The notes: a model not told the origin generated them from the letters alone. A DNA stretch of 28,748 nucleotides from an uncultured archaeon (GCA_964590575.1 CAZPWM010000011.1:25218-53965); one strand, 5' to 3'; counted from the stretch's first letter, positions 464 to 17,381 are shown. Numbers and translations: made by a program.

Positions 464-1378
464 ATGGGAGAGCTTGAGAACCTGATCAGTATTCATGATT
501 TAGATAGGAAGATGATAGACCATATCCTTGATACAGCTGCCAAGATGGAACCTTTTGCGGTGAAGAGGAGTAAGGACCTTGACTCGAAAATCATGGCAGT
601 CTTGTTCTTTGAACCTTCTACACGCACACGCCTTTCCTTTGAAAGCGCGATGCTTAGGCTTGGTGGGAGTGTTCTTGGCTTTGCGGAGGCAGGAGTGTCG
701 AGTGCTGGTGGAAAGGGTGAAACTCTTGCTGACACAATCAGAACTGTCGAGAGATATGCAGACATCATTGTTATTCGACATCCATTAGATGGTTCAGCCA
801 GGGTATCAGCTGAGTTTTCTAGTATTCCTGTAGTCAATGCTGGAAGTGGTTCGGAGGAGCATCCAACCCAAGCTCTTCTCGATCTTTATTCGATACGTAA
901 AATGAAGGGTAAGATTGACGGTCTCTCAATCTCACTCTGTGGGGATCTCAAGTACGGTCGTACAGTCCATTCGTTGGGAATGGGACTTTGTCATTATGAT
1001 GTCAAAATTAAGCTCGCTGCACCTCAATCGCTCAGAATGAAACCTGCCATCATAGAACAGATGAGAAAATCTGGAGTTGATGTGGTAGAAGTAGAGAGCG
1101 TAGAAGAGGCTGTCAAAGATGTAGATGTGATATACACTACTCGAATCCAGAAAGAACGGTTTCCTGATGTTCGAGAATATGATAAGGTGAAAGACCGGTT
1201 CCGAATAACTGTAAATGACCTAAAAATAATGCAGGAAGATACCATCATTCTACATCCACTTCCAAGAGTGGATGAACTAGACACTGAAATCGATAATACT
1301 CCACATGCTAAGTACTTTGACCAAGTGTACAATGGAGTAGTCTTGCGGATGGCTGTGTTGAAATTGATTCTTGGCTAG
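464..1378 (+). CDS. pyrB: Aspartate carbamoyltransferase catalytic subunit
   Basis: FFEPSTRT, HPTQ, GDLKYGRTVHS and HPLP motifs; ATG at 464 preferred over TTG at 431. Confidence 0.97.
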   Translation: MGELENLISIHDLDRKMIDHILDTAAKMEPFAVKRSKDLDSKIMAVLFFEPSTRTRLSFESAMLRLGGSVLGFAEAGVSSAGGKGETLADTIRTVERYADIIVIRHPLDGSARVSAEFSSIPVVNAGSGSEEHPTQALLDLYSIRKMKGKIDGLSISLCGDLKYGRTVHSLGMGLCHYDVKIKLAAPQSLRMKPAIIEQMRKSGVDVVEVESVEEAVKDVDVIYTTRIQKERFPDVREYDKVKDRFRITVNDLKIMQEDTIILHPLPRVDELDTEIDNTPHAKYFDQVYNGVVLRMAVLKLILG

Positions 1379-2100
1379 ATTGGCTCTATCCCTCGTAGCT
1401 CACGAGTCAGCGTTTCGATTGATCCTGGTTTGCTAACAGCAAGAGGGATTCGCATTTGATCAGACAACTCTAGAGCGAGTCTATCTACTTCTCCAACTCC
1501 GTGAAGAACAACAAGGGACGGTTTGAACTCTTGTGATTTGATAGCAATCATTGGGGCTCGACCAGTGCTAACATTAGTGAATATTAAGCACCTCTCAGTG
1601 GTGGCTCCAAAGAGCTTCAGAAATGCATCGCTGTTTAGCTCCTTCACCGCCCTTTCCACATCAACTAAGGTATAACCATATATCTCGCGGTCCATGAGTT
1701 TCTCACCAGCCTTGATTGTAAACTTCAAACGCTGGCAGAACTCTTTCGCAGTCATTGGTGATGAGAAGTCACTCATTGCCAGCACTATATTTAGGTCGAC
1801 GAGACTGACGTCCATGAGGCGAACAAACGCAGCTATGACTTGGCCGCCATTTCGCTCATCTAGCGTCAGCAATGCCATGATGAAGCGTCTTATTGTTGAA
1901 GTACCCGGAGATTTTCTTCGTCCGGACTCGTAGTCGCTGATAACACTTGGACTAATGCCCAGATGATCTGCGAGAATTATCTGAGGTAGTCTGAATCGTT
2001 CTCTCCAAAGTTTCATAGTTTGTCCTGGGTGTTCTGATAATGCGATTTCTCCAGCAATACGACGCGCAAGTCGCTCACGGACAGATGATTGATACGACAT
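1375..2100 (-). CDS. Archaeal XRE-type HTH transcriptional regulator (COG1709-like)
   Basis: LADHLGISPSVISDYESGRRKSPG HTH; C-terminal LIFTNVSTGRAPMIAI typical of this family. Confidence 0.85.
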   Translation of the reverse strand: MSYQSSVRERLARRIAGEIALSEHPGQTMKLWRERFRLPQIILADHLGISPSVISDYESGRRKSPGTSTIRRFIMALLTLDERNGGQVIAAFVRLMDVSLVDLNIVLAMSDFSSPMTAKEFCQRLKFTIKAGEKLMDREIYGYTLVDVERAVKELNSDAFLKLFGATTERCLIFTNVSTGRAPMIAIKSQEFKPSLVVLHGVGEVDRLALELSDQMRIPLAVSKPGSIETLTRELRGIEPI

Positions 2101-2173
2101 TGAACGAATTTCTGGGTATTTAGAACATAAGGATTTCGACTATTGACGAAGTAGCATCTCATATTAGAATTAA

Positions 2174-2311
2174 TGGTGGGCCGGCCCGGATTTGAACCGG
2201 GGATCCCCTGGAGTCTTGCTGGCGAACATGAGTTCGCAAGACCCAAACCAGGAATCATTTTTGGCAAAGGGTCACGAGTGGCCCACTGAAGCCAAGCTAG
2301 ACCACCGACCC
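2174..2311 (-). tRNA. tRNA-Pro(UGG) with two introns: D-loop 20a/21 (2259-2289, 31 nt) and canonical 37/38 (2213-2241, 29 nt); CCA encoded
   Basis: Acceptor GGGTCGG/CCGGCCC, anticodon arm CCTGG-TTTGGGT-CCAGG, T arm CCCGG-TTCAAAT-CCGGG; BHB central helices TTGG/CCAA and TTTG/CAAG, each with 3-nt bulges. Confidence 0.95.
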
Positions 2312-2337
2312 ACATTCAGAGATTCCTTTTATTTTTA

Positions 2338-2346
2338 GATATAAGA
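2338..2346 (-). promoter_or_regulatory. TATA-like box of tRNA-Pro
   Basis: TCTTATATC 27-35 bp upstream of tRNA G1. Confidence 0.55.
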
Positions 2347-2556
2347 GTATCTCTGGAATGTGAAGTTTTGAGAGGTCGATTGAGGAACAAATTATTCTGA
2401 ATATGAGATTAAAGTCCTAGCGTCAAGATCTTTTGTGTTGTATTTTCTTGGTTTTTTACGAATGATATTGTTTCATCTATTTGAATCATATTGCATTATA
2501 ATGTGGTTTTCTTACATTTTATTAATATCAAAAATTCAATAGATATTTTACTCTAA

Positions 2557-2651
2557 TAACCTTAAATTCAATGATAGGGAGTTTATTGTATAGGAGTTCA
2601 TTACCGCTTATCCATGACAAGAAAAGGAGTGAACTCTCAAAGAAACAGGTC
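2557..2651 (+). repeat. 95-bp mini-unit sharing both ends with the tnpB unit
   Basis: taaccttaaattcaa at 2557-2571 is repeated at 2653-2667; aagaaacaggtc at 2640-2651 is repeated at 4416-4427; internal stem gagttca (2594-2600)/tgaactc (2630-2636). Confidence 0.65.
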
Positions 2652-2652
2652 G

Positions 2653-4427
2653 TAACCTTAAATTCAACTGGTGAAAATCGTGGGTCGGTCCAAGGGAATC
2701 ATTGTCAGCGTGAAAGTGCCAATTCGATGGGATGTCATGTCTGACAGACAAAAGACTCGTTTCTCACAGATAACTGGGAGAGACACACGTGTCATCAAAG
2801 CCTACCTTGGAGTAATCGAACGTCACGAGAAAGACTTTCTTGTTGGAATAAGGAAGAAGAAGATTAGCGCGAGTGAATTGGATAAGTTGACTCTTACCGC
2901 CACTCGTGGAAAATCTTCTAGGATCTCTGTCCCTCATGACTTCAAAAAACGGTTCCAGAACATATCGGTAAATGAGTTTCAGGAATGCCGTGACACAGCG
3001 ATAGCCATGTGGCAAAGTCACCTTGAGAGAGGTGGCTCAAAACCACTGGGAGCAAGGGGATATTCATCAAGAAAGATTCCCCGCTTTGCCTTTGGAAAGT
3101 GCTTTGATTTTCTCTACACTCCTGAAAAGGAAATCAAACACTGGTTGAGTCTACGCTATTCAGTTGAATCACTGAAAAGAAACCGACGTATTCACGAAAA
3201 AATATCCATCCCACTCTCACCCTCTTCATATCATCTCAAGAGATTGAAGGATGGAGAGCTGAAGACAGTCCGACTTTTCAAGGATAGACGACGAAAGTGG
3301 TGGACAATATTCACAGTCACTTTGGATGTTGACATCACCGACTCATCGAATCAACCAACTGCGGTCTTGGGCATAGATCTCGGTATTGAAAAAGCCGCTT
3401 GTACCGTCTTGCTGACCAAGCAAGGATACAAACATGTTAGGTATTGGAAACAACGTGACAAGCTCAGACGAATGAAACACTATGACCAGATAGTAGCATC
3501 TCTCCAGCGAAAGAAGGAGTACCATTTGTCCCAGAACTTGAATTCAACCCAAGTCACAAGGCAACTGAGAGAGCTAGGCGAAAAACGTACCAAACTGAGT
3601 AAAGAGTATGACAACAAGCTTGTAAAAGACATTGCTGAACATGTACTGGAATTATCTAAGAAATACAATCTGCATGTTGTAATTGGTCAACTGAAAGGTA
3701 TCCGGTCGACTGCCAGAAAGGGAAATTACAGAGGTCGAAAGTTTCGAGGAATGGTTCATCGCTGGTCGTTTGCAAGGGTGAGAGATAATCTTGAACACAA
3801 ACTTGCATCCATTGGATTTGACCCTAAGAAGTTCTTTGCTGTAAGCGAGGCATGGACATCGATAAAGTGTCACAAGTGTGGAAGCAAAGGGTACCGACCA
3901 AAACAGAACCTCTTCGTCTGTGGAACCTGTGGGTTCCGTGCAAACGCTGACTTGAATGGAGCAATAAACATCGGTCGGCGTGTAATCAAGCTCATCCCTT
4001 CACTTAGTGATGAGAAGACTGGACTAGGAGTTTGGCTTCTCCCTAGCGAGAAGATCATCCCGAATATCTCAAGGAGCAAATGCTCTAAGAGGAAGTCCTT
4101 ACTCTCTCAGAGGAAACCAGCCTTAGTGGGAGAGTCCGTGGCTGAGTGCTGTGATCAGACATCTCTTGAGGTGTATGTGAGCACTAAAGACCCAGCCATG
4201 GCAAGTACTGTGGAAGAACCGTCTGCGTCCAAGATGAATGATAATCTTGGAGTATTGCAGCGGACAGAATCCAGTTGCCAAGAGAGGAACGATGTTCTTT
4301 TGAACTTGGACAAAGCTCATGTCACTTCGAATGACTCTGGTCATTCGAAGGCTGGTGACAGCTGTCGTGAGATTGGTGGAACACAGAAGTTTCTTGCAGT
4401 TCACTCAAAAGAAGTAAGAAACAGGTC
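2653..4427 (+). mobile_element. Non-autonomous tnpB-only element (IS200/IS605- or IS607-superfamily derived); boundaries inferred from repeats
   Basis: TnpB ORF without tnpA, bounded by the 15-bp and 12-bp motifs and abutting a tRNA fragment. Confidence 0.55.
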
Positions 4428-4434
4428 TTCATAG
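2671..4434 (+). CDS. tnpB: TnpB/Cas12f-like RNA-guided nuclease with rearranged RuvC-II and ~150-aa C-terminal tail (start could be GTG 2680)
   Basis: RuvC-I VLGIDLG (D236), VVIGQL (G339), VSEAWTS (E393), CHKC...CGTC zinc finger, RuvC-III NADLNGAINI (D427). Confidence 0.9.
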   Translation: MKIVGRSKGIIVSVKVPIRWDVMSDRQKTRFSQITGRDTRVIKAYLGVIERHEKDFLVGIRKKKISASELDKLTLTATRGKSSRISVPHDFKKRFQNISVNEFQECRDTAIAMWQSHLERGGSKPLGARGYSSRKIPRFAFGKCFDFLYTPEKEIKHWLSLRYSVESLKRNRRIHEKISIPLSPSSYHLKRLKDGELKTVRLFKDRRRKWWTIFTVTLDVDITDSSNQPTAVLGIDLGIEKAACTVLLTKQGYKHVRYWKQRDKLRRMKHYDQIVASLQRKKEYHLSQNLNSTQVTRQLRELGEKRTKLSKEYDNKLVKDIAEHVLELSKKYNLHVVIGQLKGIRSTARKGNYRGRKFRGMVHRWSFARVRDNLEHKLASIGFDPKKFFAVSEAWTSIKCHKCGSKGYRPKQNLFVCGTCGFRANADLNGAINIGRRVIKLIPSLSDEKTGLGVWLLPSEKIIPNISRSKCSKRKSLLSQRKPALVGESVAECCDQTSLEVYVSTKDPAMASTVEEPSASKMNDNLGVLQRTESSCQERNDVLLNLDKAHVTSNDSGHSKAGDSCREIGGTQKFLAVHSKEVRNRSS

Positions 4435-4454
4435 CCAAGCTAGGCCACCGACCC
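4295..4454 (+). ncRNA. Putative omegaRNA 3' region (scaffold plus guide); 5' end unknown
   Basis: Perfect 11-bp hairpin 4325-4350, closing stem 4295-4306/4398-4413, located at the tnpB 3' end. Confidence 0.55.
4429..4454 (-). repeat. tRNA-Pro 5' fragment (positions 1-24), intronless form
   Basis: GGGTCGGTGGCCTAGCTTGGCTATGA matches the predicted spliced tRNA-Pro at 25/26 nt. Confidence 0.9.
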
Positions 4455-4482
4455 TTGATAGACGGGCAGTCCTCCAACTGTG

Positions 4483-4491
4483 GTTATAAGA
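4483..4491 (-). promoter_or_regulatory. TATA-like box upstream of the tRNA fragment
   Basis: TCTTATAAC 29-37 bp upstream of fragment G1, similar to the box of the intact gene. Confidence 0.45.
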
Positions 4492-4552
4492 ATAACGGAG
4501 CTATTGCACAAGGTCAGTAATGAATAATGTCTTAACTGCTAGTCTGTATTAG

Positions 4553-4807
4553 ATGATGAGTACGATGAGTCTACTTGGCCCAGACGATTTCGACTTGGAC
4601 CCAAAAAGCCGAAAAAAGAAGCTGGCAAAGGACCTGTCTCCTTCAGTAGCGAAGGAAATCGAGAAATGGTTAGACAGGGAAGATGACCCTAAAGCATTCA
4701 GGAGAGTGTCAGAGCTGGTAGGACCAGAAGAGGCAGCCCGTTTGTTTTCTGGGCGGAGAAGACACGGTAAAAGATTGAAACCTAGAGACCCTCGACTCGA
4801 AGATTAA
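4553..4807 (+). CDS. Small charged hypothetical protein
   Basis: 84-aa ORF closely followed by a same-strand gene. Confidence 0.6.
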   Translation: MMSTMSLLGPDDFDLDPKSRKKKLAKDLSPSVAKEIEKWLDREDDPKAFRRVSELVGPEEAARLFSGRRRHGKRLKPRDPRLED

Positions 4808-4820
4808 TGAAGGGACAACA

Positions 4821-5183
4821 TTGACTGCAGAATCTGGCGAAATCGATAAACAGACACACCAGAGCAACGTACGAACATCGCTGGCTTTCATCCGTACGAT
4901 TAATGCTGAGAAAAGAACTCATCTTGCAGAGCTTCGTACAGGAATAGGGATTTTGACTATACCAATGTCGCTTTTGGCCATCCTGATTGCCACATCGAAC
5001 TATTACTCAATCGATCAAGTTTTGGGATATGTTGTAGCTCTCGCAGTTGGAATTGTCCTGCTATTCTTAATTGGGGGGTATCTTGTATTTTCATCCCTTA
5101 GAGAGATACGTGCGGATGACCGACTTCGATTGGAATGCGATGACCTCTCATGTTTAGTTGCTGAGTTTAACGACCAAGATTAG
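4821..5183 (+). CDS. DUF202/YidH-like small membrane protein
   Basis: AEKRTHLAELRTG motif followed by two hydrophobic helices. Confidence 0.65.
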   Translation: MTAESGEIDKQTHQSNVRTSLAFIRTINAEKRTHLAELRTGIGILTIPMSLLAILIATSNYYSIDQVLGYVVALAVGIVLLFLIGGYLVFSSLREIRADDRLRLECDDLSCLVAEFNDQD

Positions 5184-5815: not shown

Positions 5816-5923
5816 TGGAGCCCCAGGCGAGATTTGAACTCGCGGCCTCCTCAAAGTCGAGAAGAACGCAGGGTTCATCTCTCTTACCAAGGAGGCGATC
5901 TAACCGGTCTAAGCTACTGGGGC
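5816..5923 (-). tRNA. tRNA-Thr(GGU) with non-canonical 39/40 intron (5853-5882, 30 nt); CCA encoded
   Basis: Acceptor GCCCCAG/CTGGGGC, anticodon arm CCTCC-TTGGTAA-G|GAGG, T arm GCGAG-TTCAAAT-CTCGC. Confidence 0.9.
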
Positions 5924-17111: not shown

Positions 17112-17381
17112 ATATCTGGCCTCTACTCTGTTATGAACTGCTATGACGTGATTGTTAGCCAATATAAGCCCGTAATGTCACAATCGTTGCCTTGATACTT
17201 GCCGCACTTGAGTTCCGCATTCCATTGGAATACGGGAAGTGGTGACACTGGCAAGAAAAGGGTGGAACACAGGAATTTCTTACAGTTAGATTCACTCACC
17301 AAAATGTAAGATATGGGTTAGTTTAAAACGGCTTGACTGCGCCCTCCATTCTGATTTCAATCACATTAGTGGTGAAACTAT

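Follow-up and report, generated by a model that had tools for sequence, protein, structure and literature searches.

How can a mobile element settle inside an essential tRNA gene, and what would it leave behind there? The question is raised by a tRNA-Pro(UGG) gene of an uncultured archaeon, next to which lies a tnpB gene whose 3' end runs into a second, partial copy of the same tRNA. Both are found in a stretch of 28,748 nt (GCA_964590575.1 CAZPWM010000011.1:25218-53965), called the window below, and positions are counted from its first letter. An initial annotation of this DNA had proposed that the putative guide of the TnpB nuclease is the spliced exon junction of the adjacent intron-containing tRNA-Pro, so that intronless alleles would be cut and the linked gene with its intron spared. 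In what follows, G000 is the genome that holds the window (91% complete), G-numbers designate 28 genomes of the genus, C-numbers contigs, and L-numbers loci of the TnpB family; the tRNA region was read in 25/28 genomes (G041-G043, with exon matches only, were left out). The picture that we consider on balance probable is that of a mobile cassette in the D loop of the tRNA gene, with an exon of its own that repairs the interrupted gene and a guide directed against the empty allele. The anatomical and evolutionary parts of this reading are well supported, and for the remaining part we infer that TnpB would cut the empty allele.

The resident tRNA-Pro(UGG) gene (2174-2311, minus strand, 138 nt, read by hand) encodes its CCA, is presumably functional, and consists of exon 1, a D-loop intron, a middle exon, an anticodon intron and a 3' exon; position 1 of the tRNA is, with the coordinate corrected, at 2311. 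The acceptor, T arm and anticodon loop (TTTGGGT) fit tRNA-Pro, orthologues occur in 24 congeners, and the order OTCase, helix-turn-helix (HTH) gene, tRNA-Pro is syntenic in the genus. The canonical intron, 29 nt after position 37 (2213-2241, minus strand, also read by hand), is present in all congeners and in G000 is of the clade-II native type. The D-loop intron, 31 nt between positions 20a and 21 (2259-2289, minus strand), has the borders that were originally assigned to it, as exactly these bases are absent from the syntenic locus in 15 congeners. Without them the mature tRNA has a normal D arm with A21, according to the hand reading and the 15 orthologous genes. A relaxed bulge-helix-bulge (BHB) motif can be drawn by hand, with a 4-bp TTGG/CCAA helix flanked by CT-T and AA-A, and minimum-energy folds of the pre-tRNA do not show it. 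The gene is poorly recognized by automated searches: ARAGORN found nothing in one mode and, with introns allowed, miscalled the gene as 'Thr', while Rfam at the gathering score missed it and found only one tRNA in the window, at 5819-5923.

The partial copy behind tnpB lies in a segment (window 4413-4461) that reads ...aagaaacaGGTC t tcat agccaagctaggccaccgaccc ttgatag..., with GGTC at 4424-4427. Base comparison bears out the earlier statement that 4429-4454 (minus strand) matches the 5' part of an intron-free tRNA-Pro, positions 1-24, at 25/26 identity, and the matching bases are contiguous with native upstream sequence. Within this relic, 4433-4454 is a direct repeat of resident exon 1 (2290-2311) at 21/22, the sole difference being G4444 versus A2301, and the tcat at 4429-4432 equals 2255-2258, the first four bases beyond the intron. 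The resident, intron-bearing copy departs from the match exactly at the scaffold-proximal end, again as first described. The match exceeds chance, with E = 1.5e-6 in a BLAST comparison of the flank with the tRNA set of G000. As the other two tRNA-Pro genes of G000 read tcaTACCAAGC, one base shorter, and so fit worse, the relic fits the UGG gene best. Adjacent to the relic is the native upstream region of the old gene (4455-4552, minus strand), which has a TATA-like word, ttataagaata, at 4484-4494 and is 88% identical to that of the sister genome G020 and 78% to that of G012; the same word is found at the same distance upstream in 15 intronless congener genes. In G020 and G016 the homologue of 4429-5155 is joined directly to the homologue of 2258, and because of this 4429-4454 is taken to be the original 5' exon in its native place. 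It is the old exon of an ancestral intronless gene beside its native promoter, and the initial interpretation of the fragment as a copy of the spliced junction has to be abandoned.

The tally among the 25 genomes read is 15 empty, six intron-only, three composite and one decayed. The intronless genes (G020, G016, G022, G009, G011, G005, G002, G021, G019, G006, G004, G018, G014, G015 and G003) read ...ccaggaatcat directly followed by agccaagctagaccaccgaccc. In 11/15 of these genomes (type A synteny) the upstream region, ...gacgggcagtcctccaactgtggttataagaataacggag...tcatgaataaggtcttaac..., is homologous to window 4455-4540, and four (G011, G005, G019 and G018) have a different upstream region. 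The intronless, empty state is, from these alignments, the ancestral one. Relative to it, the insert of G000 spans 2259-4432 (2174 nt), lies in the D loop, and has TCAT at both junctions. A composite with the identical two junctions is also present in G012, which is colinear with window 2166-5158 at 82%, and in G023, which is colinear with window 2173-4450 at 68%. In a maximum-likelihood tree of the left flank (window 1100-2150; 24 genomes, leaving out G041-G043 and G010, whose piece was too short) the composites fall in three separate, well-supported places, in lineages that have intronless sisters: G000 is sister to the intronless G020, G012 is sister to the intronless G004, and G023 belongs to the other main clade.

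Identity between G000 and G012 varies along the locus in a way that outlines what has moved. It is 74% in the HTH flank and 79% in the 3' part of the tRNA (where G000 and G022 share 98%), 89% in the intron plus exon 1, 89% in tnpB, 85% at the right end, complete in the relic (27/27, including G4444), and 78-81% in the right flank, where G000 and its sister G020 share 86-88%. Because of these segment identities the foreign tract in G000 is placed at about 2259 to 4444-4454, with tRNA sequence on both sides, and the cassette has moved horizontally between species. Contigs of four DNA metagenome runs were also compared with the locus. One contig of run X4, 629 nt long, passes from 2254 straight to 4429 with about one difference and so leaves out the 2174 nt (4 bases are ambiguous); it extends 215 nt to one side of the joint and 414 nt to the other, and contigs of the cassette interior come from the same run. 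Filled and empty alleles thus coexist in one species. A look for RNA runs that contain the locus found none. Since differences in X4 are listed only at 1843, 1977 and 2221, its empty allele seems to keep G4444 and, as judged from these difference tables, appears to be a 20/20 match to a guide that starts at 4429. This would mean that insertion into a native allele is very recent or that the cassette is able to excise without a trace, and under both readings the 2174-nt unit is discrete. Elsewhere in the genus, a 900-nt stretch beside the TnpB copy on contig C2 of G000 (in G001, C17:8363-9264) is 94% identical between G000 and G001, which otherwise share about 71% at the tRNA-Pro locus, and this points to a recent transfer.

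Read from its left end, the insert consists of the intron, a second exon 1, a promoter, an AT-rich spacer of about 200 nt, a 5' unit, tnpB and the omegaRNA region. The second exon 1 (2290-2311, minus strand, positions 1-20a) is the replacement that came with the cassette. It is followed at 2312-2557 (no strand assigned) by what sequence comparison indicates to be a cassette-borne tRNA promoter, gatataagagtatctctggaat (about 2335-2357), and the spacer; a match to the promoter word is found in the 'type B' upstream region of other congeners, and the remainder of 2312-2557 had no BLAST match in its own genome. A derivation of the D-loop intron from the element was also considered and dropped, as BLAST of the intron and of 2313-2560 against G000 gave nothing beyond chance; the 31-nt intron has no second copy in that genome.

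The tnpB gene (2680-4434, plus strand) encodes 584 amino acids and ends in a TAG codon that lies across the border to the tRNA relic. The start was set at the GTG at 2680 and not at 2671, following the N-terminus of the family, MGRSKG. The product matches Pfam Cas12f1-like_TNB (PF07282) at 5.1e-13 and, weakly and below the cut-off, PF01385 (8e-4); sequence matches to TnpB and Cas12f chains in the PDB range from 1e-9 to 1e-7, the best being a TnpB at 1.4e-9. When 41 copies of the family from the genus were aligned for catalytic motifs, the aspartates of RuvC-I (GIDLG) and RuvC-III (NAD) were found to be kept in 41/41, as was an alternative glutamate in the motif (P/S)ExWTS, and the zinc-finger cysteines in 39/41 (in the alignment L062 and L088 are without the first cysteine of the second pair).

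The omegaRNA scaffold region (4205-4427, plus strand) overlaps the 3' end of tnpB and ends in GGTC. For the last 220 nt before GGTC, RNAalifold on 24 copies gave 21 pairs, 13 of them with compensatory changes, and conservation ends sharply right after GGTC/GGTT in more than 20 non-orthologous copies. By this family-wide edge the guide would start at 4428-4430 and not at 4404, so that the scaffold/guide boundary stays where it had been placed earlier, to within two bases. An extension of the right end by 'ttca', suggested by four copies, was discarded because more than 20 copies are not conserved past GGTC. The putative guide, (t)tcatagccaagctaggccac, is thus about 16-20 nt long, starts 0-2 nt after GGTC (4428-4448, plus strand), and, counted from 4429, matches the intronless allele of the congeners at 19/20. 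That the right flank serves as guide is the ordinary rule for TnpB elements and calls for no special design.

In the mechanism that we propose, the cassette (2259-4432) is a discrete mobile unit that occupies the D loop of a tRNA-Pro(UGG) gene once free of this intron. Its left part supplies a new exon 1 with its own promoter, and the 31-nt stretch joins this exon to the host 3' part and is presumably removed by the archaeal splicing endonuclease; the essential tRNA would survive the insertion because this joining stretch is spliced out, and the cassette could occupy such a gene because the displaced exon is replaced by its own. The old exon 1 remains directly behind the omegaRNA scaffold, and for that reason the guide spells the junction of cassette-free, intronless alleles only. 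TnpB with this guide may cut the empty allele, and repair from the cassette-bearing copy would then retain or spread the cassette. Cutting would spare the resident gene, in which the intron takes the place of the scaffold-proximal bases, and likewise the cassette, in which the scaffold end stands where the upstream motif would be. Where repair anneals in the replacement exon 1 and not in the relic, the intron alone would be copied, giving intron-only alleles such as those of the congeners. With such cutting one could account for how the cassette is retained, for its entry into intronless alleles of other species by way of homology arms only about 20 nt long, and for the by-products that have the intron alone. 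A comparable process is described for bacterial IS605 elements in those parts of two reports that were available, namely that TnpB cuts vacant sites and recombination re-copies the element (10.1101/2023.11.20.567912, 10.1101/2023.03.14.532601).

As to a tie between element and intron, the comparison of related genomes gave a mixed result. A homologous intron of 30-31 nt is found with no TnpB at the locus in six congeners (G024, G008, G013, G007, G001 and G017), and homologous introns occupy the same place in the composite or decayed genomes G012, G023 and G010. A strict linkage of intron and element, as the initial annotation had implied, is therefore not observed, and one of the outcomes which it had named as refuting has been found. 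Its broader notion of a selfish element tied to intron gain fared better: it agrees with the presence of the composite in three lineages, with an element more alike than its flanks, with the empty allele, and with the gain of an intron in G024 and G008. The flanks and upstream region of these two are almost the same as in their intronless sister G015, from which they differ by the intron and a linked exon-1 variant, agccaaTctag, that recurs in the composites of G023 and G010. The intron thus entered an intronless allele with a very short tract, and this is what would result from an event that copies from a composite and is resolved in the replacement exon 1.

Several observations nevertheless weigh against the proposed mechanism. 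The existence of intron-only genomes means that the intron is older than, or independent of, the cassette copy of G000, and the direction from cassette to intron-only allele is inferred. Insertions near tRNA-Pro do not all look alike: on contig C92 of G010 the intron-bearing gene is accompanied by a 1.7-kb unrelated gene and a decayed TnpB, there is no relic, and the joint with the decayed right end is situated about 70 nt upstream of where the native tRNA starts. Glycine stands in place of the canonical RuvC-II glutamate in 41/41 copies (V-A/S-I-G-R/Q/K-L). In the available portion of PMC10691335, RIIr branches of TnpB, some nearly exclusive to archaea, are described with a glycine in place of this glutamate and an alternative glutamate predicted to compensate, and the activity of this type is likewise only predicted there; as the glycine and the alternative glutamate of the present family fit these branches, nuclease activity of the rearranged protein is plausible. 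T4428, which directly follows GGTC, stands where the tRNA has A, and would be a seed mismatch if the guide starts at 4428. The eight target sites read have no common 5-mer before the target, giving no consensus for a transposon-associated motif (TAM); with a guide start 2 nt after GGTC the upstream words end in T in 8/8 sites, and the two closest copies have GAAT, a basis too small for a motif. No Y1 TnpA (PF01797) was found in G000, and one was found in only 1/28 genomes of the genus; nor does G000 have a tyrosine recombinase (PF00589, E<=0.01), for which the same search was positive in 14/14 control genomes. The T-arm types of tRNA-Pro are incongruent with the flank tree, so plain recombination at this gene would be frequent and could move the cassette without a cut. 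Finally, the mechanism gives no account of how the first composite arose.

Much of this can also be taken to mean that the cassette is a passive relic, spread by ordinary homologous recombination of imported DNA on the nearly invariant tRNA sequence, or through some unknown recombinase for which the 4-nt word TCAT is the site, with the guide a by-product and with a TnpB that may be inactive or serve another function. We regard this as a possibility of real but lesser weight. Besides the mosaic T-arm types, the lost RuvC-II glutamate, the lack of a consistent TAM and the mismatch of the first base after GGTC, it gains from the junctions. Three insertions could be read at both ends against an empty site: that in tRNA-Pro, with the junction word TCAT at both ends; that of G012:C82 versus G000:C128, with ATAT; and a 9.1-kb element in G016:C44 versus G000:C22, with A(T/G)AAAAGG. 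A word of 4-8 nt thus occurs twice in 3/3 insertions, and conservation is confined to the right end, the left ends being unrelated to one another. Such junctions depart from the seamless insertion that is canonical for IS200/IS605 and look like recombination at short identities, not like peel-and-paste. Passivity is, however, difficult to reconcile with the conservation of the protein, in which the RuvC-I and RuvC-III aspartates, the alternative glutamate and, nearly throughout, the zinc-finger cysteines persist down to about 45% identity; since these motifs are conserved and the structure of the omegaRNA covaries, an RNA-guided machine under selection is indicated. In addition, recombination without help works poorly on homology arms of only about 19 and 22 nt. 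The cut distance of TnpB is 15-21 nt, and the right boundary of the foreign tract, at 4444-4454, falls where such a cut would be expected.

Whether homologous tnpB genes also abut tRNA fragments was examined with the first 45 nt past the right end in 42 copies distinct by their first 20 nt (50 loci), compared with the 34 tRNA genes of G000; 45-nt windows inside tnpB reading frames (n=250) served as control. They do so often: 13/42 right flanks match a tRNA at E<=0.05 versus 9/250 controls, and 11/42 versus 0/250 at E<=0.001. As three of the matching loci (L057, L067 and L068) share one guide, the independent count is lower, about 9/40. One match, of L049 to tRNA-Cys, is spurious, and two real relics (L049 to Pro, and L071/L072) were missed by the comparison. 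Apart from antisense Pro 1-24, the pieces behind right ends are antisense Asp 1-14; antisense Arg(CCG) 1-38, followed by native upstream sequence; the 3' end of a Gly gene; a Cys piece; and, in sense, Arg(UCG) positions 8-26 and T arm, and Gln. At the Arg(CCG) locus G000 has an intact gene, and G015 may have a second composite there: its contig ends 0.5 kb past tnpB, and no intact tRNA-Arg(CCG) gene was found in the assembly, which is 90% complete. With so many family right ends abutting tRNA pieces, the tRNA-Pro case belongs to a more general association. A conserved site with both occupied and empty alleles, and its occupation in several lineages, are features of the homing type, to which a nuclease specificity predicted from the guide may be added. 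It may tentatively be suggested, with doubt prevailing, that the TnpB family is an RNA-guided homing element of tRNA genes with a self-carried exon, which would use the displaced exon as guide to cut cassette-free alleles within polyploid cells and across species and whose partial repair would seed BHB introns.

Further remnants of the family accompany these sites. At G000:C6:25600-25954 (L108, with the orthologues L071 and L072) a decayed tnpB 3' end and right end are followed by aagagctacgtcccg, an antisense match to tRNA positions 1-13. The intact gene of that tRNA, which has an intron, is located 65 nt beyond and runs the opposite way, so that the arrangement is inverted and not direct. 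Behind several right ends there are one to three further short right-end remnants (...aggtc / ...aggtt), for example in L057 (3316-3520), L061 (3319-3460), L067 (1873-1970) and L068 (3313-3355; all in TnpB orientation), each with its own flank-like stretch, and these look like stacked or nested insertions at one site. In the window itself a second, solitary right-end-like remnant is found at about 17255-17319 (minus strand; G000:C11:42472-42536), with 77% identity over 58 nt to the C2 copy.

The association with tRNA genes bears on another explanation, that the cassette is the remnant of a tRNA-targeting integrative plasmid or virus, which recombined an intron-containing attP with an intronless attB, carried TnpB as a passenger, and has otherwise been deleted. 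In its favour, it is the inserted copy of the tRNA part that has the intron, a 22-nt tRNA repeat is present, as would be expected of the att sites of integrative elements of the SSV/pNOB8 type, and PMC3293823 provides, in the part accessible, a precedent. We nonetheless find it improbable: no integrase was found within or beside the insert among the neighbours searched with Pfam and no PF00589 member in G000, in each of the three composites the border of the insert coincides exactly with the right end of TnpB, the shared core is only 4 nt, and the many other family right ends that abut tRNA pieces point to the TnpB element itself. That TnpB is a host-side guard against foreign elements with an intronless tRNA-Pro (e.g., as attP), the intron protecting the host gene, is very hard to credit, since, for all that the guide matches only intron-free sequence and tRNA-like guides are frequent in the family, the cassette is mobile and polymorphic and not a fixed host gene, most close relatives are without it and have a targetable intronless gene, and no foreign element carrying the target was found.

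The nearest precedent for the arrangement is the tRNA-Thr(GGU) gene of Caldiarchaeum subterraneum (Sugahara et al. 2012, PMC3293823), and the following comparison is limited to the description in the accessible part of that report and does not extend to the sequences. There, a 1.8-kb insert separates a 5' fragment (1-27) from a full gene with an intron at 24/25, a few bases are common to both junctions, the insert is a repeated element, and filled and unfilled alleles occur in one natural population. Intron gain was attributed by its authors to the intron-containing attP of a pNOB8-like element, the integrase being guessed. The two inserts have the same architecture, including the new intron, the 5' fragment and the heterogeneity of alleles. 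They differ in that the Caldiarchaeum insert contains a 545-bp repeat and an 813-bp reading frame of unknown family, co-oriented with the tRNA, whereas the tRNA-Pro cassette contains only TnpB and omegaRNA in antisense, its relic lies exactly where the guide is read, and no integrase was found. What is new here is that the element is a TnpB with its guide RNA and that the relic is a guide matching the empty allele, and further the comparative depth, the evidence of inter-species transfer and the family-wide link to tRNA.

With IS200/IS605 elements, for which homing or retention by TnpB-omegaRNA is described in the available parts of Karvelis et al. 2021 (PMC8612924) and Meers et al. (10.1101/2023.03.14.532601), the cassette shares a TnpB gene, a structured RNA over its 3' end, and a guide that is the DNA past the right end and matches the element-free site. 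Unlike them, it has no conserved left end and its genome no Y1 TnpA, and it differs from them in the 4-8-nt junction words, the change of the RuvC-II glutamate to glycine and the carried piece of a host gene that repairs the insertion. The glycine and the conserved glutamate downstream are as in the RIIr TnpB proteins (Altae-Tran et al. 2023, PMC10691335), and in the main text of that study, as far as it was available, tRNA is mentioned 0 times. The IStron, a TnpB-bearing transposon that lessens the harm of gene insertion by removal at the RNA level, is the nearest functional analogue; in the cassette, unlike in IStrons, only 31 nt would be spliced, presumably by the host endonuclease, and the bulk is bypassed by a new promoter and exon. 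A group I intron was not found in the window, where Rfam at the gathering score detected one tRNA and no intron family. Literature linking TnpB with archaeal tRNA introns that turned up was limited to a study of circular omegaRNA and a general review.

Other parts of the cassette and its family are also of interest. A conserved 5' unit of the TnpB family (2558-2667, plus strand), found in family copies and with two boxes that covary, consists of the box aaccttaaattcaa (2558-2571), a hairpin (GAGTTCA...TGAACTC), aagaaacaGGTC at 2648-2651 and the same box again (2654-2667), about 13 nt before the start of tnpB. This 80-nt hairpin unit upstream of tnpB occurs in about 20 other copies (e.g., L059, L060, L064, L068, L070 and L074). 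The hairpin is followed by ...ACAGGTC, resembling the right end, and is flanked by two TATA-like boxes of 12-18 nt, which covary from copy to copy even where the proteins are only 45% identical; the left box has the sequence ATAA..., while AGAA... is found on the right, behind GGTC. One may think of a small RNA gene whose promoter is duplicated, or of a scar left where a right end was joined to a left end. Neighbours of the cassette are the HTH protein, OTCase and small open reading frames (ORFs).

A candidate for the mobility function of the family is a giant ORF of about 1880 amino acids, present in G000 at C64:872-6508 (minus strand) and C2:60779-66406, and in at least seven further partial copies (C156, C69, C141, C6, C123, C188 and C144). 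It has no Pfam family and no usable Atlas match, and a hand reading revealed a PD-(D/E)xK-like word, GRIDLT...VIEVKSK. In most family copies it lies divergently beside tnpB, and it is part of the 9.1-kb insertion in G016:C44, the two small ORFs of which have no Pfam family; it is not in the tRNA-Pro cassette. The only serine recombinase found in G000 (C123:136-780), an IS607-type TnpA with a MerR-like N-terminus, is convergent with a homologue of the giant ORF, and a distant TnpB-like stretch is on the same 8-kb contig. For the C2 copy of the family in G000 no empty site was found in the genus, its flank not being conserved.

Two observations concern tRNA genes of the locus. Among the tRNA-Pro genes of the congeners there are two T-arm types, ggcccggatttgaaccggg and gggggagatttgaactccc, whose distribution disagrees with the flank tree; the type of G000 differs from that of its sister G020, which suggests frequent recombination within the gene. 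The tRNA at 5819-5923 (minus strand; Rfam tRNA, 41.4 bits) is a second intron-containing gene, 1.4 kb from the relic, with a 34-nt insert in the anticodon loop, and was called Thr-GGU by ARAGORN.

The origin of archaeal tRNA introns at odd positions, and of split tRNA genes, is a long-standing question. The main proposal for intron gain is the integration of mobile elements, and it has rested largely on one population study. The tRNA-Pro locus is a second and much richer case, in which all three states (empty, filled and intron only) are present among 25 congeners, and the cassette is a likely route for tRNA introns to arise and spread. The locus is of high interest, since it gives the view that mobile elements bring tRNA introns the form of an RNA-guided mechanism open to test at the bench, where guide and target are defined and the resident gene provides an immune control of its own. 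If the empty allele is indeed cut, homing by TnpB would extend from the retention of bacterial transposons to a spread like that of a drive, by way of a gene that is essential and universally conserved, and the replacement of an exon, not self-splicing, would avert the damage of the insertion. Should the TnpB family as a whole home on tRNA genes and its partial repair seed introns, a transposon nuclease would be a present-day engine of tRNA intron gain and tRNA gene fragmentation in archaea.

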